Origin: Polyangiales bacterium | Lineage (GTDB): Bacteria > Myxococcota_A > Polyangia > Polyangiales > JADJQN01 | Assembly (NCBI GenBank): GCA_964202905.1 | Contig: CAXNJO010000003.1 | Span: forward strand, 704,001-768,000 | Direction: 5' to 3' | Length of the DNA stretch: 64,000 nucleotides | Part shown: piece after piece, positions 48,317 to 59,250 of the stretch | Layout: every line of letters begins with the position of its first letter | Position numbering within the stretch: position 1 is the stretch's first letter | Program-made: the position numbers and the translations under genes | The notes under the pieces: generated by a model | What the model was told of the DNA's origin: nothing | The model's database searches: none | Seen by the model: the letters and a program-made list of their open reading frames with translations, nothing else

Positions 48317-48366
48317 GATGTCTGCGGCGGAGATGTCGCCCGGACGTCAAGACGACGACCGGTTAC

Positions 48367-48378
48367 CTCAAGGAAGAG
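48367..48378 (+). promoter_or_regulatory. putative CsrA-binding hairpin over the fliC ribosome-binding site
   Basis: CTC-AAGGAA-GAG, with ANGGA in a hexaloop 8 nt upstream of the ATG. Confidence 0.45.
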
Positions 48379-48386
48379 AGAACACC

Positions 48387-49226
48387 ATGGCCATCAGCAT
48401 CAAGACGAACGTCGAGTCCCTCGGCGCACAGCGCAACCTGAACCAGACGCAGAAGGCCCTCGCGGCGAACTTCGGGCGTCTGTCGAGCGGCTTGCGTATC
48501 AACACGGCAGCGGACGACGCCGCCGGCCTCGCGATCAGCGAGCGACTGAAGTCGCAGATCCGCTCGATGACGCAGGCCGAGCGCAACGCGAACGACGGCA
48601 TCAGCCTCCTGCAGACCGCCGAAGGCGCGATGAACGAGAACAGCGGCCTGCTCATCCGCATGCGTGAGCTTGCGATGCAGTCCTCGACGGACACCGTCGG
48701 CACGGCGGAGAAGGCCCTGCTCCAGACGGAGTTCAACGAGCTGACGGAGGAGATCGGCCGCATCGCGTCGGTCACGCAGTTCAACGGCGTGACCCTCCTC
48801 GACGGCACGACCACCGCCTTCAATTTCCAGGTCGGCATCGGCACCACGGCGTCGGACACCATCACCGCCGACATGGAGTCGCTCACCAGCACGTCCTACG
48901 GCGCGAGCGGCAGCGACCTCACCACGCTCGACATCTCGACGACCACGGGCGCGCAGGCGGCGCTCACCATGCTCGACACCGCGATCTCCGACACCTCGCA
49001 GTCCCGCTCGACCCTCGGGTCGGTGCAGAACCGCCTCCAGGTGACGACCGCGAACCTCATGAGCACGCGCGAGAACCTCAGCGCCGCGAACTCGCGTATC
49101 CGCGACGTCGACGTGGCGGAGGAGAGCTCCGCGATGACCCGCAACAACATCCTGATGCAGGCCGGCGTCTCGGTGCTGTCGCAGGCGAACCAGGCTCCGC
49201 AGACGGCTCTCTCGCTGCTCCGCTGA
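48387..49226 (+). CDS. fliC: flagellin (279 aa)
   Basis: RLSSGLRINTAADDAAGLAIS, ANDGISLLQTAEGA, SRIRDVDVAEE, QAG.SVL.QAN. Confidence 0.97.
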   Translation: MAISIKTNVESLGAQRNLNQTQKALAANFGRLSSGLRINTAADDAAGLAISERLKSQIRSMTQAERNANDGISLLQTAEGAMNENSGLLIRMRELAMQSSTDTVGTAEKALLQTEFNELTEEIGRIASVTQFNGVTLLDGTTTAFNFQVGIGTTASDTITADMESLTSTSYGASGSDLTTLDISTTTGAQAALTMLDTAISDTSQSRSTLGSVQNRLQVTTANLMSTRENLSAANSRIRDVDVAEESSAMTRNNILMQAGVSVLSQANQAPQTALSLLR

Positions 49227-49353: not shown

Positions 49354-50697
49354 GTGCCTGTTGCCTCATTCAGCGGACTCGCCTCGGGCATCGACTCGAC
49401 CGCCCTCATCAGCGGCCTCGTGGGGATCGCGCGCCAGCCGATCACGCGGCTCCAGAAGGAGCAGTCGACCCTCAGCCAGCAGGCCGCGCGCGTCGACGAT
49501 CTGCGCTCGAAACTCTCCACGTTTCGCACCGCCGCGCAGGCCCTGAACTCCACGCAGGAGGTGCTCGCGACGAAGGCGAGCTCCGCGGACGCCACGATCG
49601 TCAAGGTCACCGCCGGCGCGGACGCCACGACGAGCGCGTACGACATCCACGTCACCTCGCTCGCGACCTCCACGCGCGCCTACGCGAATCCCGTCGCGGC
49701 GAAGGACCAGACCGGCCTCTTCGGCACGGGCACGCTCTCCCTCACGATCGGCACGACCACGACCGACATCACGGTCGACGCGAGCGACACGCTCGCCTCG
49801 GTCGCCGGCAAGATCAACGACGCCGACATCGGCGCGGTCGCCGGCCTCTTCTTCGACGGCACGAACTGGCGGCTCTCCGTGAACGGCACGGCCACCGGCG
49901 CGGCCAACGCCGTGGGCTTCGCCGAGGCGGGCGGCCTCACGCTGGGTCTCTCCGGTCCGGCGAACCTCGTGCAGCCCGCGCTCGACGCGGTCTTCGAGGT
50001 CGATGGCTTCGGGGTGACGAGCGCGTCGAACACGGTGAGCACCGCGATCGAGGGCGTGACCCTCGAGCTCGTGAATGCGTCGCCCACGACCGCCTCGACC
50101 GGCGTGAAGATCGACCGCGACCCCGCTGCGCTCGAGACGAAGGTCAACGACTTCGCCAAAGCCTACAACGACGTGATGGCCGCGATCGACGCGGAGACGC
50201 CGAGGAACGGCGTCCCGCGCGCGGGCGCGCTCAGCGGCGACGCGACGCTGCGCAGCATCCAGGCGCGCCTCCGAAACGTCGTCGGGCAGGACGTCGCCGG
50301 GCTCACCGGCAACTACAAGACGCTCGCGTCGGTGGGTATCTCGCTCGGCCGCACCGGCACGATGTCCGTCAACGCCACGAAGCTCACTGCGGCCGCGGCC
50401 GCCGACCCGATGGGCGTCGCCTCGCTCTTCGCGGCCGAGGGCACCTCGACCGGCCTGATGCGGACGATCGACACGACGCTCGAGGGCTACGTCAAGACCA
50501 GCACGGGCGTTCTCTCGACCAAATCGAAGGGCCTCCGCGACCGGGCGAACACCCTCAACGACCGCATCGACGGGATGGAGCGCCGCGTCTCGAAGTACGA
50601 GGACACCCTGAAGCGGCAGTTCGTCTCGCTCGAGCAGCTCGTCTCCGGGCTCAACGCGCAGAGCAACCAGCTCGCCAGCATCACCCGGAATCTCTGA
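49354..50697 (+). CDS. fliD: flagellar filament cap
   Basis: SGLASGIDS, SNTV...IEGVTL.L, LKRQF..LEQ; follows fliC. Confidence 0.93.
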   Translation: MPVASFSGLASGIDSTALISGLVGIARQPITRLQKEQSTLSQQAARVDDLRSKLSTFRTAAQALNSTQEVLATKASSADATIVKVTAGADATTSAYDIHVTSLATSTRAYANPVAAKDQTGLFGTGTLSLTIGTTTTDITVDASDTLASVAGKINDADIGAVAGLFFDGTNWRLSVNGTATGAANAVGFAEAGGLTLGLSGPANLVQPALDAVFEVDGFGVTSASNTVSTAIEGVTLELVNASPTTASTGVKIDRDPAALETKVNDFAKAYNDVMAAIDAETPRNGVPRAGALSGDATLRSIQARLRNVVGQDVAGLTGNYKTLASVGISLGRTGTMSVNATKLTAAAAADPMGVASLFAAEGTSTGLMRTIDTTLEGYVKTSTGVLSTKSKGLRDRANTLNDRIDGMERRVSKYEDTLKRQFVSLEQLVSGLNAQSNQLASITRNL

Positions 50698-50766: not shown

Positions 50767-51141
50767 ATGTCGTTCGCAGTCGCTCAATATCAAGCCAGTC
50801 GCATCGAGACATCCTCACCGGTGCAGATCGTCGTCACCCTCTACGACGGGGCGCTCCGCTTCCTGCGCACGGGCATCAACGCCCTTCAGGTGGGCGACAT
50901 CGCGGGCAAGGGCATCGCCCTGACCAAAGCCCACGCGATCATCACCGAGCTCCTCGTGACGCTGAACCACGAGGCCGCCCCGGAGATCTCCGGGCAGCTC
51001 GAGGCGATCTACTCCTTCGTCCTCGACCGCATCCTCCGCGCGAACGCGGAGTGCGACGAGAAGCTGATCGACGAGGCCATCCGCGCGCTGCTCCCGCTGC
51101 GCGACGCCTGGGCGCAGCTCGCGCGCACGGGCCACCCATGA
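50767..51141 (+). CDS. fliS: flagellin export chaperone
   Basis: SSP.Q....LYDGA, II.EL...L, LRDAW. Confidence 0.93.
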   Translation: MSFAVAQYQASRIETSSPVQIVVTLYDGALRFLRTGINALQVGDIAGKGIALTKAHAIITELLVTLNHEAAPEISGQLEAIYSFVLDRILRANAECDEKLIDEAIRALLPLRDAWAQLARTGHP

Positions 51142-52805: not shown

Positions 52806-53171
52806 GTGCCTGTCGACCCGCGGGTCACGGTGGGCTTCGCGTGTGCCCCACGCTCGCCACACCGCCGCCCGCTGCGTCGTGCGTTCAGCGCCGCCGCGTG
52901 GCTCGTCGCGGCCGCCGTGTGCGCCATGCTCGGTGCGTGCACCCCCGACGCGTGCCTCCGCGAGAGCGACTGCGCCGCCGGCTTCACGTGCACGGCCGGC
53001 GCCTGCACCGAGGACCCGGTCGACGCCGGCCGCGCCGATGCCGGCACGCTCGACGCAGGCCCCCGCGACGCCTCGGCCGCCGACGCCGGCCCGCGCGACG
53101 CCGGCCCCACGGACGGCGCGACGACCGAGGTCGACGCAGGCACGGACGCCGGCAGCGACGCAGGCGCCTGA
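52806..53171 (+). CDS. small Cys-rich lipoprotein with Asp-Ala-Gly tail (start uncertain)
   Basis: LGAC lipobox, C...SDC..GFTC..G.C motif, DAG repeats. Confidence 0.6.
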   Translation: MPVDPRVTVGFACAPRSPHRRPLRRAFSAAAWLVAAAVCAMLGACTPDACLRESDCAAGFTCTAGACTEDPVDAGRADAGTLDAGPRDASAADAGPRDAGPTDGATTEVDAGTDAGSDAGA

Positions 53172-53257
53172 CCCCCCGCCGCGCTCAGCCCCGCGGTGGC
53201 GCGCGCCAACCGCCGCGCAGCCCGGGCAGCACGGCCAGGCGCCCGCGACGTTCGGTT

Positions 53258-53328
53258 TCGCGGAACGTCGCAACGAGGTTGCGACATCGCGGAACGTCGC
53301 AACGGGGTTGCGACATCACGGGGTTGCG
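53258..53328. repeat. two 29-bp tandem palindromic units plus a partial third
   Basis: TCGCGGAAC-GTCGCAAC-G(A/G)G-GTTGCGAC-A at 53258 and 53287. Confidence 0.85.
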
Positions 53329-53355
53329 GTGTCGTCGCGCGTGGCGACGAGGGCG

Positions 53356-53958
53356 CTACATCGACGCGAGCAGCGCCTTGTCGGCGACTTCGTCGAGCGG
53401 GGCTTGCGGCGACAAGCCGGAGGTGTCGAGCACCACCTGCACGCCGAAGCGCTCGGTCATCGAGATGACGACGGGCGCGAGCAGGTTCGCGCTCGGCGGG
53501 CCGCCATCGCCCGGGATGACGAGCACGACCGCCACGACCGCGGACTCGAGCGGGATGCCCGACGCGGCGCACGCGGCCTCGAGCGGATAATCGGGGAACC
53601 ACGTCGCCGCGTCCGCGACGACGAAGCGGATGGCCGGGTCGTCCTCGGCGACGAGCAGTCGCAGCGAGGGCGCGCCGGGCACCTCGCAAGGGAAGAAACG
53701 CGTGTAGACGCGGAGGCCGAGGAAGCCGCCGCGAATCTCGAGCACTTCTTCGCCGGACGGCACGGACAGGGCCAGGGATTGCAGCGCGCGGCGGTTCTCC
53801 GCTTCGATGCGCTCCACCACCTCGCCGCGATGGATCGAGACCGTGCGCGGCGCCGTGACGCCGACGCGCACACGCCCGCCCCCGACGTCGAGGATGGTGA
53901 CCTCGATGTCACCGCCGATCACGATGCGCTCGCCTGCGCGGCGCGTGAAGGTGAGCAT
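53356..53958 (-). CDS. csrA-fliW: CsrA-FliW fusion protein
   Basis: aa 1-60 MLTFTRRAGERIVIGGDIEVTIL...VRVGVTAP..V.IHRGEV...I..EN (CsrA); remainder GFLG...F...D.P...F.V.D...FPDY...ANLLAPVVI...Q.VL (FliW). Confidence 0.85.
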   Translation of the reverse strand: MLTFTRRAGERIVIGGDIEVTILDVGGGRVRVGVTAPRTVSIHRGEVVERIEAENRRALQSLALSVPSGEEVLEIRGGFLGLRVYTRFFPCEVPGAPSLRLLVAEDDPAIRFVVADAATWFPDYPLEAACAASGIPLESAVVAVVLVIPGDGGPPSANLLAPVVISMTERFGVQVVLDTSGLSPQAPLDEVADKALLASM

Positions 53959-54842
53959 CAGCGACCGCCGCCGACGAGCCCCGGGAAGGGCAGGCGCGAC
54001 GCCACGGCGACCGCCGCCTCGAGCGCGCGCTCGGCGTTCAACAGCTCGGAGTATGCGCGGTACGGGTCAACCTCGACCTGCTCCGCGCGCGACGCGGCGC
54101 TGCGATCCTTCACGAGCTCCGCCGTCGACAGGGTCACCTCGAAGCCGCGGATCTGCCCGCCGAGCTCGACGCGCGAGCCGTTGACCTGCTGGGCCGACGC
54201 GTCGAGGCCGGCGATGGTCGCGCGCACGGCGTCCGGGTCGTTGGCGTCGAGCGCCGTCGCGAGCTGCTCGAGCGTCGCGAGGACGTCCGTCCCGGTGCCG
54301 GCGCCGAACGTCGTCGCGCCGGACACGCTCATGCTCAGCCGGAGGTAGGGCGCGACCTCGGCCTCCTTCACCTGACCGTCGCCGCTGTAGGCACCCGTCA
54401 CCGCGTCGAAGGGCGGCGCGCCGTCGCGGTAACCACCGAACACATACGTCCCATCGACCTCGCGGTTCGCGGCGTTGACGATCTCGAGACGCAGCTCCCG
54501 CGCAGCCGCAGCCGCGAAGGTGCGCTCGTTCGCCGTGTACGTGCCGTTCGCCATCTGCACGGCGAGCTCGCGGGCGCGGGCGAGCGCCTCGCCGGTCTCG
54601 GCGAGGGCCTGGTCGGCACCGATGGCGACCGACATCGCGTATTCCGAGGTGCGCGCGCTGGCGGTCGCCGTGGCCTCGCGCGCCGTGTCGCGGCGGCCGA
54701 GGGCGAACGCGACCGGGTCGTCCGAGGGTTTCTGGACACGCAGCCCGCTCGACGCGATGGACGTCGCGGCGGACGAGCGCTCGCGCGCGTTCGCGATCGC
54801 GCGCTGCCCCAGCTCGTGGACCATACCGTCGGATACACGCAC
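53958..54842 (-). CDS. flgL: hook-associated protein 3
   Basis: SSGLRVQKPSDDP, ANGTY, YVFGG...PF; follows flgK. Confidence 0.9.
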   Translation of the reverse strand: MRVSDGMVHELGQRAIANARERSSAATSIASSGLRVQKPSDDPVAFALGRRDTAREATATASARTSEYAMSVAIGADQALAETGEALARARELAVQMANGTYTANERTFAAAAARELRLEIVNAANREVDGTYVFGGYRDGAPPFDAVTGAYSGDGQVKEAEVAPYLRLSMSVSGATTFGAGTGTDVLATLEQLATALDANDPDAVRATIAGLDASAQQVNGSRVELGGQIRGFEVTLSTAELVKDRSAASRAEQVEVDPYRAYSELLNAERALEAAVAVASRLPFPGLVGGGR

Positions 54843-54844
54843 GG

Positions 54845-56230
54845 CTACCTCCTGAGGGCGAGTAGGCTGCTGAGCATCTCATCCGCGACGCGGACGACCT
54901 CGAGCGATCCTTGGTAAGCGCGCTGGTAGCGGGTCAGGTTCATCATCTCTTCGTCGAGCGTCACACCGGAGATCGAGGACCGCAGCGCTTCGATCTGGAC
55001 CTTCGCGTCGTCAGTGTACGCGCGATCGCGGATGGCTGTCCGCACCAAAGTTCCCACCTCCGCGCCCGCGTCGGAGAAGGCGTCGTTCGCGGTGCGCGTT
55101 CCGCCCGAGGCGAACGCGGTCGACGCGAGGGCCTGCAGCGCGAGGGCGTTGCGGTTGTCACCGGGCAGCGAGGTGACGTCCGTCGCGGCCGCGAGGCGCC
55201 GCGGCTGGCCGGCGATGCTGGCCGAGAGCGTGATGTTCCCGGCCGCGCCTGCGGATGTGGCGGGCACGTCGAAGAGGTCGTTGCCGGTGCCGCCGTCGAG
55301 GTCGAAGCCCGTGGACTGCACGGCGTTGTAGGCGGTCGCGACGTCGAAGGCGAGCTGGTCGAGGCGCTGGGCCGCCGTGGTGATCGCGCCGTCGCGGGCG
55401 GCGACGAGGCCGGCGATGGTGCCGCCTTCCGCGTAGCTCGTGACGTCGACGGGCGCGCCGGCCTGGATGGCCGTGACGCGCATGTCCCCCGAGCCGGGGG
55501 CCAGCGAGGCCGTGAGCAGGTGCGCCTGACCGTCGCGCGAGACGAGTTCCGTCCGGCCGCCGAGCAGCACCGTGAGCTGGCCGTCGTCCTGCGCGATCGT
55601 GGTGATCGTGATCTGGGAGGCGACCTCGCGGACGAACTGATCGCGGCGGTCACGCAGGTCGCCCGCCTCGCGGCCGTCGACCTCGGCCTTCGAGATCTCG
55701 GTGCCGAGCTGCGCGATCTGAATCAACCGCTCGTTGATCGTGCCGACCTCGTCGGCGAGCTTGCCGTTCGCGTCCGCGCGGGCCTCGGAGACGCGCGCGG
55801 AGGCCTCGTTGAAAGCGCGGGCGAGCCCATCGGCCGTCGAGAGCGCCGCCACGCGGGGGGCGTACTCGCCGGGCCGCGACGCGACCTCGGCGATCGCGGC
55901 CTGGAACGCGTCGAGCTGGACGCCGAGCCCGGAGTCGCCGAACACCTCGTCGACCGTCGTGAGCGCCTGGGCGCGGGCCGCCGCCTCGCCCGCGCTCGCG
56001 CGGACCCCGAGGAGGCGCTTCTCGACGAACGCGTCGACCACACGGTGATAGCCGACAGCGCGCGCGCCGTTGCCACCCGCTGGCGCCGGGCCGAGCGGCG
56101 TGAGCATCGCGATGCGGCGGGTGTAGCCCTCCGTCGCGACGTTGGACGCCCCCTGCGACGCGACGTTGGCGCCGAACGTGCCGGCCGCCATCCCGTTGGC
56201 GCCGACGTTCAGGAGGCTCATGACAGTCAC
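54845..56230 (-). CDS. flgK: hook-associated protein 1
   Basis: SNVATEGYTR, DLRDRRD, GDNRNA, SGVTLDEEM.NL..YQRAY. Confidence 0.93.
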   Translation of the reverse strand: MTVMSLLNVGANGMAAGTFGANVASQGASNVATEGYTRRIAMLTPLGPAPAGGNGARAVGYHRVVDAFVEKRLLGVRASAGEAAARAQALTTVDEVFGDSGLGVQLDAFQAAIAEVASRPGEYAPRVAALSTADGLARAFNEASARVSEARADANGKLADEVGTINERLIQIAQLGTEISKAEVDGREAGDLRDRRDQFVREVASQITITTIAQDDGQLTVLLGGRTELVSRDGQAHLLTASLAPGSGDMRVTAIQAGAPVDVTSYAEGGTIAGLVAARDGAITTAAQRLDQLAFDVATAYNAVQSTGFDLDGGTGNDLFDVPATSAGAAGNITLSASIAGQPRRLAAATDVTSLPGDNRNALALQALASTAFASGGTRTANDAFSDAGAEVGTLVRTAIRDRAYTDDAKVQIEALRSSISGVTLDEEMMNLTRYQRAYQGSLEVVRVADEMLSSLLALRR

Positions 56231-56589
56231 AGCGCCCCCCGCCTCCGCGGCGCGATCGACGGAGCACGGCGGCCCGCGGGGCTGTACATCGGCTCTTCGT
56301 CACCCACCAGCGAGCGGAGGCAAGAGACCAGGTGGCGGAGCAACATCAGGTTCTCCCGCGCGACATCCGCGAGTCGCCCGGCATTCGGGGGAAACACGCC
56401 AGCATGCTCGCCGAGCACCGCGTCCACCGCGCGCTGCTTTTCCGCTTGGATCGCGAGGAGCCGGTCGACGTCGGCCGAGAGGGCCGCGGCGCGCTCGGCG
56501 TCGAGCAACTCGGCGAGGCGCGCGACGGCATCCGGCGGCTCCACGGCGGCGAGCGGTGCTGTCCCGAAATCGATGGCGGCGGCGAGCAT
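56227..56589 (-). CDS. flgN: FlgN-like export chaperone
   Basis: between flgM and flgK; L..E..AL, K, N..LL and C-terminal Y...G pattern. Confidence 0.6.
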   Translation of the reverse strand: MLAAAIDFGTAPLAAVEPPDAVARLAELLDAERAAALSADVDRLLAIQAEKQRAVDAVLGEHAGVFPPNAGRLADVARENLMLLRHLVSCLRSLVGDEEPMYSPAGRRAPSIAPRRRGAL

Positions 56590-56591
56590 GG

Positions 56592-56846
56592 TCAGGTCTC
56601 CTCTCGCAACATCGCGTCGGCGATGCGGTCCAGGTCGATCTTGAAGGTGCCCTTCTCGAAGGACTCCCGGAGGCGCGCGACCTTCTGGGAGTCGACGGAC
56701 TCAGGAGCCCGCGCATCCGCGAGCGCTTGGGCCTGACCGGAGATGCGGACCCGCTCCGCCGACGTCGTCGTGCGGGCGTCCTCGCTCTTGAGCGTGCCCC
56801 GGGGCTCGTAGGTGGCGGTGGTGCGTGACGGGCCGTTGACCTTCAT
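56592..56846 (-). CDS. flgM: anti-sigma28 factor
   Basis: V.IS...KVARLR.....G.F.ID..RIAD.M; AGGAG SD. Confidence 0.88.
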   Translation of the reverse strand: MKVNGPSRTTATYEPRGTLKSEDARTTTSAERVRISGQAQALADARAPESVDSQKVARLRESFEKGTFKIDLDRIADAMLREET

Positions 56847-56864
56847 GGCGTCTCCTGATGGGTA

Positions 56865-56892
56865 ACTTCGGACGTTGGTGATCGAAACTTGA
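56865..56892 (-). promoter_or_regulatory. sigma28-type promoter of flgM
   Basis: TCAAG-N15-TCCGAAGT on the minus strand, preceded by an A-tract. Confidence 0.7.
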
Positions 56893-56912
56893 GCGGTTTT
56901 TTTGGTTTTGTG

Positions 56913-58061
56913 TCAACGGTGATCCTGCACGCTCGGGCGTGCATGCCGGCTGGTCGGCGTCTCGGGGCCCTCGCCCTCGGTCGGGCGCCTCAACTCGAGG
57001 ACCTCGATCTGGGACAGCCCGTTCCGCGCTCCCCGCTCGGCGTGGCCCGCGCGGGTCCAGACACGGCCCTCGAGGCGCTGCGCGCCACGTGCGCGCGCCT
57101 CCCAGCCATCGAACACGACGCGCTCGACCTGGCCTTCCGCGTCGTAATCGACCGCGTGGATGCGCTCGACGACCGCCATGTGCCCGGCGTGACCCGCCGA
57201 GCCGCTGCCCGCGAGCACGAAGGCGCGCTGCCCCCGCTCCCCCGCGGCGACGAGCGGCGACTCGCCCTCGCCCGTCACGATGCGCGCCCAGTCCTGCTGC
57301 ATGCGCCCGTCGGATGCATCACGAACGACACCATCCGGGTTCGGATAGCCCCAGCCGTGCTGGCGGGCCTGGAGGGGGACGGCGTACCCCGCGCGCCGCG
57401 CCGCCTCGAGCGCGAAGAGGTTGCACTTGTAGTGGCCCTCGAAGCCGTTCGCGTCCTCGACGTTGAAGGCCGCGACGCCACCATCCGGCGTCGGCGTGGC
57501 GAAGTCGCTCGCGAGATCCGCCCGGGTCAGCGCGCCATCGCGCGCCCAGTGCTGCGCGGCCTCGCCCGCGCTCATGCGCGCCGCGGCGCCGGCCAGCGCG
57601 CCGGCGGCCCCCGGGATACCGGGGTGCGCGGCGCCCGAGGCGTGGAGGGCGGCGAGCCGCCCGGCCAACGGGTCCTGCGCGAGGGGCGCGAGGCCTCCGC
57701 CGCGGCCGGGCGTGACGAGCGGCTCGCCCCCGAGTTGCGCGGGGTCGGCGCCGAGCGACGGCCCGATGACGCGCGCGAGACCGATGCCGCCCCCGTCCGC
57801 GAGGCGCTCGGCGAGCACCTCGTCGAACATCGAGAGGTACTGCTGCGACGCGCCGGACACCTCGGCGCCGCCGGACTGCGCGGTCTTGCGCAGGACCTGG
57901 ATCATCTGCTGGAGCAGCACGCTCTCGAAGCGGCGCGCGGCCTTGGCCGCCTGATCGGGGCCACCGGGGCCGGTGCGCGCCCGCTGCGCCGCGAGCTCGG
58001 CGGCGCGCGTCGGACCATCGATCGTGGCGTCCTGACCGGTGCGCGGGATCACGGCGACCAT
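56913..58061 (-). CDS. flgJ: FlgJ rod-capping protein with non-canonical C-terminal domain
   Basis: AARRFESVLLQQM...LRKT...Y.SMFD..LA......GIGLA; located between flgI and flgM. Confidence 0.8.
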   Translation of the reverse strand: MVAVIPRTGQDATIDGPTRAAELAAQRARTGPGGPDQAAKAARRFESVLLQQMIQVLRKTAQSGGAEVSGASQQYLSMFDEVLAERLADGGGIGLARVIGPSLGADPAQLGGEPLVTPGRGGGLAPLAQDPLAGRLAALHASGAAHPGIPGAAGALAGAAARMSAGEAAQHWARDGALTRADLASDFATPTPDGGVAAFNVEDANGFEGHYKCNLFALEAARRAGYAVPLQARQHGWGYPNPDGVVRDASDGRMQQDWARIVTGEGESPLVAAGERGQRAFVLAGSGSAGHAGHMAVVERIHAVDYDAEGQVERVVFDGWEARARGAQRLEGRVWTRAGHAERGARNGLSQIEVLELRRPTEGEGPETPTSRHARPSVQDHR

Positions 58062-58113
58062 GGGCGGAGTCCTCCTCGTCCGGCGGGGCGGCCGGGCATG
58101 CGGACCGACAACG

Positions 58114-59250
58114 TCACTGGGACTCGATGCGGGCGCGGAGCGCGCCCGCCGTGTGGAGGGCTTGCAGGATCGGCACGAGGTCGCGGGGCCGCGCGCCGAG
58201 GGCGTTGAGCGCGGCGACGACCTCGCGCAGCGACGCCGCGTTCGGCACGAGGGCGACGGCGCCGCCCTCCGACCGCGCCGTGACCTGCGACTGCTCGACC
58301 GTGGTGGTCGTCCCCGCGGCGAGCGGCGCTGGCTGCGAGACGGTCTGCTGCTCGACGATCTCGACGGTGAGGTTGCCGTGGGCGACGGCCGCCTCCGTGA
58401 TCCGCACCCCCGCGCCGAGCACCACCGTGCCCGTCCGCTCGTCGACCACGACGCGCGCGACCGAATCTGCCTCGACCTCGAGCAGCGAGAGCTGCGCGAC
58501 GAGCGCCACCGGGCGCGTGCGGAACGCCTCGGGCACCGTGACCTTCACGAGCGCGTGGTCGACCGCCTCCGCGCTCCCCTCTCCGAGCGAGGCGACGATC
58601 GCCTGCGCGATGCGCTCGGCCGTGACGAACGAGGGCTCGCGGAGCTGCAGAAAGATGCCGTTTGCGCCGAGCGCGGGCGACTCGACCGGGCGCTCGACGA
58701 TGGCGCCGTCGGGCACGCGGCCCGAGGTCGGGTGGTTCTGCTGGACGCGGGAGCCGCTGTTCCCCGAGGCCGCGAACCCGCCGACGAGCACGGGCCCCTG
58801 CGCGACGGCGTAGACGCGGCGGTCCGCGCCGTAGAGCGGCGTTTGCAGGAGCACGCCGCCGAGCAGGCTCTTCGCGTTGCCGAGCGACGCGACCGTGACG
58901 TCGACCCGCACGCCGGCGCTCGCGGACGACGGGATCGTCGCCGTCACCATCACGGCAGCGGCGTTGCGCATCTGGATGTTCTGGATGGTCTCGATGTCGA
59001 CCGTCGCGCCGAGGCGGCGGAGCATCGCGGCGGTGCTCTGCACGGTGAAGCGATCCGGACCACGGTCGCCGCTCTGGTTCAGGCCGACGACGAGGCCGTA
59101 GCCGACGAGCTGGTTGGGACGCACGCCGCCGACGTCGCAGAGGTCCTCGATGCGGGTCGCGCGGGCGCGGGGGACCGGGCCGAGCGACGCGAGCGCGAGG
59201 AACGCGAGCGTGGGAACGAGGCGGAGGACGGCCGTGCGTGTGCGTGACAT
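58114..59250 (-). CDS. flgI: flagellar P-ring protein
   Basis: GVRPNQLVGYGLVVGL, NAAAVMVTA, SL.GG.LLQTPL, ERTGTVV, LQAL..AGAL. Confidence 0.96.
   Translation of the reverse strand: MSRTRTAVLRLVPTLAFLALASLGPVPRARATRIEDLCDVGGVRPNQLVGYGLVVGLNQSGDRGPDRFTVQSTAAMLRRLGATVDIETIQNIQMRNAAAVMVTATIPSSASAGVRVDVTVASLGNAKSLLGGVLLQTPLYGADRRVYAVAQGPVLVGGFAASGNSGSRVQQNHPTSGRVPDGAIVERPVESPALGANGIFLQLREPSFVTAERIAQAIVASLGEGSAEAVDHALVKVTVPEAFRTRPVALVAQLSLLEVEADSVARVVVDERTGTVVLGAGVRITEAAVAHGNLTVEIVEQQTVSQPAPLAAGTTTTVEQSQVTARSEGGAVALVPNAASLREVVAALNALGARPRDLVPILQALHTAGALRARIESQ

Follow-up and report, generated by a model that had tools for sequence, protein, structure and literature searches.

A conserved CsrA–FliW fusion in Polyangiales and its putative role as a one-polypeptide flagellin switch

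Can CsrA and FliW, which act as separate and exchangeable partners in Bacillus subtilis, work as two halves of one chain? The question is raised by a 64,000-nucleotide stretch of the genome of a Polyangiales bacterium (GenBank assembly GCA_964202905.1, contig CAXNJO010000003.1, positions 704,001 to 768,000), which we call the window. One open reading frame (ORF) of the window encodes a CsrA domain followed by a FliW domain, the same two protein families as in the Hag–FliW–CsrA system of B. subtilis (FliW–CsrA crystal structure from Geobacillus thermodenitrificans: PDB 5DMB). We find that the fusion is a real, conserved and uncharacterized variant of this flagellin–FliW–CsrA system. Its probable role, in our judgment, is that of a self-contained flagellin-sensing translational switch, in which the known partner exchange takes place on one polypeptide.

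One reading frame for CsrA and FliW

The original prediction of a single 200-aa ORF adjoining flgL was borne out, and its strand, which had been left unnamed, is minus. Searches with hidden Markov models (HMMs) identified both predicted domains above their Pfam cut-offs: CsrA (PF02599) at aa 1–52, covering profile positions 1–52 of 53 (73.9 bits, cut-off 27), and FliW (PF02623) at aa 75–187, covering positions 3–121 of 122 (49.5 bits, cut-off 25). Two NCBIfam CsrA equivalogs also exceed their cut-offs (74.4 against 73 and 70.8 against 70.1), and the CsrA structures 1y00, 2bti and 5dmb_D align to the CsrA domain. The FliW motifs noticed earlier are present in the translation (GFLG at 78–81, FPDY, NLLAPVVI from 158 and QVVL from 174), and neither a stop codon nor an ATG occurs across aa 59–75, as had been claimed. 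All NCBIfam FliW matches begin at profile position 8–21 and leave the first 7–20 positions unmatched, so the usual start of FliW has no counterpart in the fusion. Against the FliW crystal chain 5dmb_A, the alignment begins only at residue 19 of the chain, again in keeping with the predicted absence of the N-terminal strand. The whole frame is strongly coding, with a GC content at third codon positions (GC3) of 0.915 against 0.713 GC for the gene.

The genome (5.68 Mb, 19 contigs, 94.5% complete) contains a single CsrA match and a single FliW match, and both are the fused ORF. Database entries for these proteins show both Pfam domains. However, the sources label the protein only as 'carbon storage regulator', and annotation pipelines therefore hide the FliW half.

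A stop codon or frame lost through assembly or sequencing error could merge two genes in this way, and the genome is a draft in 19 contigs. A contig from a public run spans the junction from 53670 to 54300 with two substitutions and zero gaps, and a contig from another run spans 53582 to 53870 and is identical. These runs come from one study, which possibly includes the source of the assembly, and are therefore not independent. A third contig (run X3) carries a one-base deletion at 53438, in the FliW half, at a depth of 4.67; the deletion is absent from those contigs of X1, X2 and X5 that cover the position and probably reflects an error or an uncommon variant. The best matching public runs are labelled lake-water metagenomes, and no RNA data set was found among the public runs matching the fused locus. 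Against an artefact stand the gap-free contigs, the high GC3 along the frame and, above all, the recurrence of the same frame, at 31–84% identity, in 42 of the 301 genomes searched from the order. Conservation across independent assemblies rules the artefact out, and we regard it as next to impossible. The claim of a real fusion rather than read-through thereby stands, with both Pfam families matched in 18/18 aligned fusions.

The same architecture was sought in other genomes and found. A word-indexed protein search returned 10 further proteins at 48–84% identity, nine of which match both Pfam families and are about 200 residues long; the remaining one is a fragment of 154 aa from a contig of 1,082 bases. 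Four CsrA-only matches also came from a single-protein search, in metagenome-assembled genomes named Polyangiaceae, Myxococcales, Chthonomonas and Opitutaceae. With a profile built from an alignment of 18 fusions, 89 of 301 genomes from the order gave a match. The continuous fused frame is present in 42 genomes from 11 family codes (41 at full length and one ended by a contig edge), separate csrA and fliW genes in 45 (41 in family f17 and four in f11), and marginal matches in two. Of the 42 fused genomes, 40 have no CsrA/FliW match besides the fusion. Where the order has split genes, csrA and then fliW are adjacent on the same strand in 14 genomes and lie about 30 kb apart in 12.

Full-length fused matches in a 401-genome sample of the phylum were found in eight genomes, every one of this order. 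Outside the order, csrA and fliW are separate in this sample, often adjacent as csrA then fliW. In a few of these genomes the two genes abut. Three such loci (G399:C49:19127-19797, G540:C28:31292-31970 and G595:C419:2214-2913) have one in-frame stop between the genes, or a csrA match that continues past one stop into the gene that follows; in G399 the stop is a single in-frame TAA. Such pairs look like a pre-fusion arrangement.

A split relative within the order indicates what differs in the fusion. This relative (G032) has the order flgL, a 74-aa csrA and a fliW that starts with the usual N-terminal strand. Compared with this relative, the CsrA tail past about residue 60 and about the first 15 FliW residues are gone from the fusion. 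In the split relative, the FliW N-terminal segment precedes the shared motif. The linker of the strand-less fusion family is 13–23 residues long, with variable, unconserved columns and no start codon.

We searched the profile over 1.84 billion cluster representatives, which gave 52,446 matches at E <= 0.001, of which 41 were at E <= 1e-30. The best 150 representatives (P0012–P0160) were classed by two purpose-built domain HMMs only. By this classification, 52 of them are csrA-fliW, five have the reversed fliW-csrA order, 64 are csrA-csrA, 12 are fliW-fliW, four have four CsrA repeats, one has three CsrA repeats, one is csrA-csrA-fliW (P0041), 10 are FliW alone and one is CsrA alone. It is possible that the tandem CsrA-CsrA proteins are single-chain dimers. 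The FliW N-terminal strand is retained in 19 other csrA-fliW fusions, whose linkers range from 19 to about 55 residues.

A tree of FliW domains (84 rows, 125 columns, quick search, midpoint root) left many forks unresolved. One clade, with 98% support in the Shimodaira–Hasegawa-like approximate likelihood ratio test (SH-aLRT), contains 33 strand-less fusions and three rows labelled 'split'. At least two of these three are N-terminally cut pieces, namely P0010 and P0065 (whose match starts from profile position 53). Strand-retaining fusions fall in other supported clades, one of which (99%) also holds the split FliW of G032. Based on these clades, the strand-less family may have a single origin, and CsrA–FliW fusion probably arose several times. 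Judged from the sequence comparisons, the fusion is old and under selection.

The probable repeated origin bears on another explanation of the locus, in which an internal start or cleavage of the linker yields two proteins that form an ordinary two-protein switch. The linker is disordered in the structural model described below, and an in-frame GTG lies at V72. However, position 72 is V, T, A or P among family members and is not conserved as a start, and Met is absent from the linker in all of them. The N-terminal strand of free FliW proteins is also lost. Finally, the repeated fusions suggest that the linkage itself is selected. We consider a split product very unlikely.

Contact residues and the predicted flagellin interface

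Alignment of the 18 fusions revealed that L2, R6, R44, E46 and A58 of the CsrA half are invariant and that R7 and N55 are at least 90% conserved. Over a larger set, R44 is present in 58/59 fusions, E46 in 59/59, N55 in 52/59 and A58 in 54/59, and position 51 is mostly I, V or L. Together with R44, the residues L2, R6, R7 and E46 make up the RNA-binding residues in strands 1 and 5. R44 is reported to be crucial to RNA binding by CsrA, and in Campylobacter jejuni CsrA both V51 and N55 are required for FliW binding, while the last 15 residues are dispensable (PMC7829508). In B. subtilis, a change of N55 abolishes FliW binding (bioRxiv 10.1101/2020.07.02.184341). E. coli CsrA, which is reported to be under small-RNA and not FliW control (PMC7829508), has K at the position corresponding to N55 in our alignment. 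By residue conservation, the fusions retain the part of CsrA that contacts FliW, although RNA binding can do without N55 and A58.

The FliW half is similarly conserved. The 18 aligned fusions show no variation at G78, G81, P125, N158, L159, A161, P162 and Q174; N158 and Q174 are each kept in 58/59 and P162 in 59/59. The B. subtilis FliW cluster reported near CsrA N55 consists of P26, F58, N108, A111 and Q124 (bioRxiv 10.1101/2020.07.02.184341). In a phmmer alignment to 5dmb_A, these correspond to L80, F112, N158, A161 and Q174 of the fusion, so that four of the five residues are retained. The same alignment confirmed the replacement of LQS by LVA.

This replacement had suggested that the FliW half might be degenerate. 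We modeled the single chain with AlphaFold from an 18-row alignment, which gave a mean predicted local distance difference test (pLDDT) score of 81. The score is 85–96 in the FliW half, 56–74 in the CsrA half and 53–58 at aa 51–70, around the linker. The top Foldseek matches were the FliW crystal structures 5dmd_B, 5dmd_A, 5jak and 5dmb_A (E 7e-8 to 7e-7, template modeling (TM) scores normalized to the target of 0.71–0.73, 126–132 columns), and CsrA structures ranked after them. With its confident fold, FliW crystal structures as top matches and near-invariant contact residues, the FliW half is not degenerate, and we reject that suggestion.

We then modeled a complex of the window flagellin, from a 23-flagellin alignment, with aa 62–200 of the fusion, from the 18-fusion alignment. 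The complex scored 0.66 (runs 0.68, 0.66 and 0.65), which is the model's own confidence, and the best of three controls scored 0.00. The mark used for this score was reached by 116/157 solved complexes and 2/215 mismatched pairs, and is only a rough guide here because custom alignments were used. Contact agreement between runs was at least 56%, and the partner pLDDT was at least 81. The predicted FliW interface comprises residues 77, 79–84, 89, 91, 101, 109–113, 145–150, 156, 158, 160–161, 174, 176, 178 and 184–185. This flagellin-facing surface includes L80, F112, N158, A161 and Q174, whose counterparts surround CsrA N55 in the solved complex. As modeled, it is one FliW surface for two partners, which is what a partner switch requires.

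On the flagellin side, the predicted interface (35–38, 50–64, 149–159 and 211–234) corresponds to the D1-N and D1-C regions. Hydrogen–deuterium exchange (HDX) is reported to show protection by FliW of residues 11–34, 50–72 and 240–260 of the 304-residue B. subtilis flagellin, and protection by flagellin of FliW residues 3–11, 22–28 and 95–115 (PMC6070490). The modeled flagellin interface fits the D1-N and D1-C protection.

The D1-C helix of flagellin contains, as E229-N230-x-x-A233, the motif found at E54-N55-x-x-A58 in the CsrA helix, and flagellin Q214-N215-R216 is similar to CsrA E54-N55-R56. Flagellin residues 229–233 and 214–217 are both inside the predicted FliW interface. It is a speculative idea that flagellin and CsrA offer similar motifs to one FliW pocket.

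The shared surface also leaves room for a tether in place of a switch. Under this explanation, FliW no longer inhibits CsrA and only joins flagellin to CsrA-bound flagellin mRNA, which could allow feedback on that mRNA during its translation, or localization of flagellin and its hand-over to the export gate. Flagellin binding alone can explain the conserved FliW residues, and the N-terminal strand of FliW is lost. The K123–D41 pair, a salt bridge in the proposed allosteric step of the B. subtilis system, is not conserved and is replaced by V173 and S41. Furthermore, the split system keeps flagellin–FliW and CsrA–mRNA apart, whereas the fusion necessarily joins them. Against a mere tether, N55 and A58 are kept in most fusions, while the published work on two species indicates that they are dispensable for RNA and needed for FliW. 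The linker also remains short at 13–23 residues; we expect this where the domains must reach each other, and we count it against the tether. We consider the tether unlikely and favor the flagellin-sensing switch.

A flagellin-leader element in fused-gene genomes

We gathered flagellin genes from 40 relatives and this genome and obtained a match in 16 of the 41; a flagellin match is present in 12/13 relatives having CsrA/FliW. The ten fused-gene genomes have 18 distinct leaders, 15 of which carry CAnGGAnG at the Shine-Dalgarno and 14 an upstream hairpin with GGA in its loop. The six split-gene or CsrA-less genomes have ten leaders, with one and five, respectively, and the five hairpins are loose and at scattered distances. 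In 500 mononucleotide shuffles, the hairpin count of the fused-gene leaders averaged 5.8 and never exceeded 11, against the 14 of 18 found.

Two hairpins are common to ten leaders from eight fused-gene genomes. The first, about 35 nt 5' of the start, has a GGUC/GACC-type stem and an nGGAn loop, and the second displays A(A/C)GGA(G/A) over the Shine-Dalgarno on a CUC/GAG mini-stem. In the ten-leader alignment, 85.9% of cells pair and the first helix has compensatory changes on both sides in 5/7 pairs, values reached by just 2–3 of 500 shuffles; the ten leaders were chosen for showing the hairpin, and the covariation count is therefore partly circular.

A covariance model (R1) built from these ten leaders matched 19 of the 151 genomes searched from the order at E <= 0.01; all 19 carry the fusion, and 11 of them are outside the training set. 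Of the 20 non-training matches examined, all but one are immediately 5' of a flagellin start; the exception is ended by a contig edge. R1 had no match in the split-gene families f17 (0/23) and f11 (0/9), and none in f7 (0/10) and f3 (0/15), families that include some fused genomes. Related genomes are non-independent samples, and R1, having been trained on fused-gene leaders, may overlook diverged split-gene leaders. Within these sampling limits, the element matched by R1 behaves, from its distribution, as a flagellin-leader operator that accompanies the fused gene. The two-hairpin leader element is a candidate for a new cis-regulatory RNA motif.

In the genome studied here, the top R1 match is the leader of a flagellin gene on contig 11 (E 8.6e-6), which is a training row. 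The second match is the leader of the window flagellin, a non-training sequence (E 0.05, 23.4 bits). A third match (contig 13, E 0.16) lies inside long ORFs with no start codon after it, and we reject it as chance.

Four relatives of the same order (G005, G016, G018 and G034) have flagellin genes and no CsrA/FliW match with the queries used, so flagellin control without CsrA/FliW exists in the order. Their leaders lack the two-site element, bar one CAnGGAnG in G016.

The leader element bears on a third alternative, in which the CsrA half is permanently inhibited by its own FliW and the protein is only a FliW-type flagellin binder, with CsrA left as a relic or a dimerization handle. A partner bound within the same chain should be very difficult to displace; furthermore, in B. 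subtilis a single FliW is reported to be enough for inhibition of a CsrA dimer (PMC6529632), and a dimer of the fusion has two. However, a relic would not explain why L2, R6, R44 and E46 are kept over a deep family, or why the two-site GGA element is on flagellin leaders precisely in the fused-gene genomes. The fusion is also the genome's only CsrA. We regard permanent self-inhibition as quite unlikely, and the flagellin-sensing switch remains the reading that we carry forward.

The fused gene lies among late flagellar genes (Table 1). Base 53958 is common to the flgL stop codon and the ATG of the fusion, a one-base overlap that suggests translational coupling. The flgL gene is directly 5' of the fusion in 10/10 related fused loci, and it has the same position in one split locus. 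A gene for a rod-binding-domain protein is also upstream, on the same strand as flgK and flgM. Judged by its position, the 120-aa ORF between flgM and flgK could be a FlgN-like chaperone. The window flagellin is likely both the sensed ligand and the regulated target.

Table 1 Features of the fused locus and its flagellar neighborhood (positions within the window)
Feature	Position	Strand	Basis or remark
Flagellin 5' leader, CAAGGAAG over Shine-Dalgarno in CUC/GAG mini-hairpin	48341..48389	plus	R1 match
Flagellin gene, 279 aa	48387..49226	plus	Flagellin_C match
fliD (filament cap)	49354..50697	plus	Pfam FliD_N and FliD_C
fliS (flagellin export chaperone)	50767..51141	plus	Pfam FliS
csrA::fliW fused ORF	53356..53958	minus	ATG start, 200 aa and stop; ORF list, Pfam
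FliW domain, aa 73–200, without usual N-terminal strand	53359..53742	minus	Pfam, pLDDT, Foldseek
Linker, aa 59–72	53743..53784	minus	Variable sequence, low pLDDT
CsrA domain, aa 1–58, five strands and helix bearing I51, N55, A58	53785..53958	minus	Pfam
flgL (hook-filament junction protein)	53958..54842	minus	Flagellin_N Pfam match
flgK	54845..56230	minus	FlgK_D1 and Flg_bbr_C Pfam matches
120-aa ORF between flgM and flgK	56227..56589	minus	No Pfam match at E <= 0.01
flgM (anti-sigma-28 factor)	56592..56846	minus	Pfam FlgM match

A scan of 53100–58300 for sigma-70 promoters and terminators gave nothing above shuffles. Immediately 3' of the fusion stop codon, at 53258–53315, are two tandem 29-nt repeats, and a weaker third copy is at 53332–53360. 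Each 29-nt repeat has a perfect 8-bp palindrome: GTCGCAAC, three bases and GTTGCGAC. These repeats may be operon terminator hairpins or a protein-binding site. Within the 5.68-Mb genome the palindrome is confined to the fusion locus, which rules out a genome-wide element of the repetitive extragenic palindromic (REP) type.

A model of the switch and its known relatives

In the model that we favor, the N-terminal CsrA domain would dimerize, and the dimer would bind GGA in the two flagellin-leader hairpins, one of them over the Shine-Dalgarno, and block flagellin translation. The FliW domain, on its flexible linker of about 14 residues, would dock by default on the CsrA helix (I51, N55 and A58) through L80, F112, N158, A161 and Q174, and this docking would turn RNA binding off. 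Unexported flagellin would take the same FliW face through its D1 helices and draw FliW off CsrA, which leads to repression. Once flagellin has been exported, the FliW domain would redock and translation would resume. The analysis establishes which domains are present, how well and how widely the fusion is conserved, the gene order around it, the retention of contact residues and the GGA leader element, along with a flagellin/FliW interface that is supported by modeling. From the split systems we infer that the two halves dock on each other, that flagellin competes with CsrA and that RNA is bound; the direction of regulation is likewise an inference.

Several points weigh against this model, among them the caveats given above on the complex score, the covariation count and the sampling of R1. 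NCBIfam FliW equivalogs matched the fusion far below their cut-offs (at best 51.7 against 165), and the single-chain model has low confidence in the linker and the CsrA half (pLDDT 53–74). The PDB entry 9p4g, which contains FliW, might also contain flagellin, so the complex score could come from model memory. The segment equivalent to the HDX-protected FliW residues 3–11 is lost in the strand-less family. The proline equivalent to P26 is present in just 6/40 of its members. The loss of the K123–D41 pair also counts here; its authors report that the pair is confined to Bacillales (bioRxiv 10.1101/2020.07.02.184341). Because the same residues are in the predicted flagellin interface, conservation of FliW residues alone is no proof of CsrA contact, which is argued for only by N55, A58 and I51 on the CsrA side. 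With FliW tethered, its local concentration at CsrA is higher, and flagellin may fail to displace it. On the RNA side, the window flagellin leader fits R1 weakly and is without the canonical upstream hairpin, and a genome of the same genus (G001) has no R1 match.

The original prediction also proposed a fixed stoichiometry. The ratio is indeed set by the fusion; however, it is forced to two FliW per CsrA dimer, compared with the approximately one reported for B. subtilis, where one FliW suffices to inhibit (PMC6529632). Both FliW domains of the fusion may therefore need flagellin before CsrA is freed. If so, by analogy, the fusion would give a sharper flagellin threshold than the split system. 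The fusion architecture would also bring flagellin, regulator and mRNA together in one particle.

A bolder version of this idea, which we put forward only tentatively and hold to be less than likely, is that the fusion and its RNA operator are a co-evolved closed module with flagellin as a stoichiometric co-repressor inside the particle. Two flagellins would load both FliW domains, after which the CsrA faces would clamp both GGA hairpins. The resulting feedback would be cooperative and near-digital, beyond that of the split 1:1:1 Bacillus system, and the repeated fusions would reflect selection for a covalent 2:2 design.

The likeness to the B. subtilis system extends from the protein families to the details. 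Both share the contact residues (CsrA N55, and FliW N108, A111 and Q124, equivalent to N158, A161 and Q174), a late flagellar operon setting and a flagellin leader with two GGA sites, one over the Shine-Dalgarno. Flagellin is also predicted to contact the FliW half through D1-N and D1-C, in line with the HDX data from B. subtilis. The fusion differs in being one polypeptide rather than separate exchangeable partners, in its FliW without the N-terminal strand and CsrA without the tail past about residue 60, in its ratio of two FliW per dimer and in having no K123–D41 pair. The C. jejuni FlaA–FliW–CsrA proteins are also separate, unlike the fusion, which keeps I51 and N55 where C. jejuni CsrA needs V51 and N55, and has the linker in place of the tail (PMC7829508). 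The CsrA regulon of C. jejuni is reported to be wider (PMC4894983), whereas R1, which is limited to elements like its training set, finds flagellin leaders only. In enteropathogenic E. coli, the CesT–CsrA pair (PDB 5Z38) is a further case of a protein rather than a small RNA as the CsrA antagonist. However, CesT has an unrelated fold, the two proteins are separate and there is no flagellin link.

The prediction had known of no characterized example, and we found no natural CsrA–FliW fusion described in the literature searched; the fusions met there are engineered tags or reporters. The mechanism by which FliW inhibits CsrA is debated; a 2020 study calls it unclear and puts forward two steps, the second of them allosteric (bioRxiv 10.1101/2020.07.02.184341). 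A natural covalent CsrA–FliW protein is a ready single-chain object for structures of the inhibited state. That stoichiometry sets the flagellin threshold is reported as a central claim of the B. subtilis work (PMC6529632), and the fusion is a natural experiment with FliW:CsrA fixed at two per dimer. The same natural experiment shows that FliW can dispense with its N-terminal strand and CsrA with its tail. The fusion is also widespread, occurring in 42 genomes among the 301 searched from one order and making up 52 of the best 150 cluster representatives.

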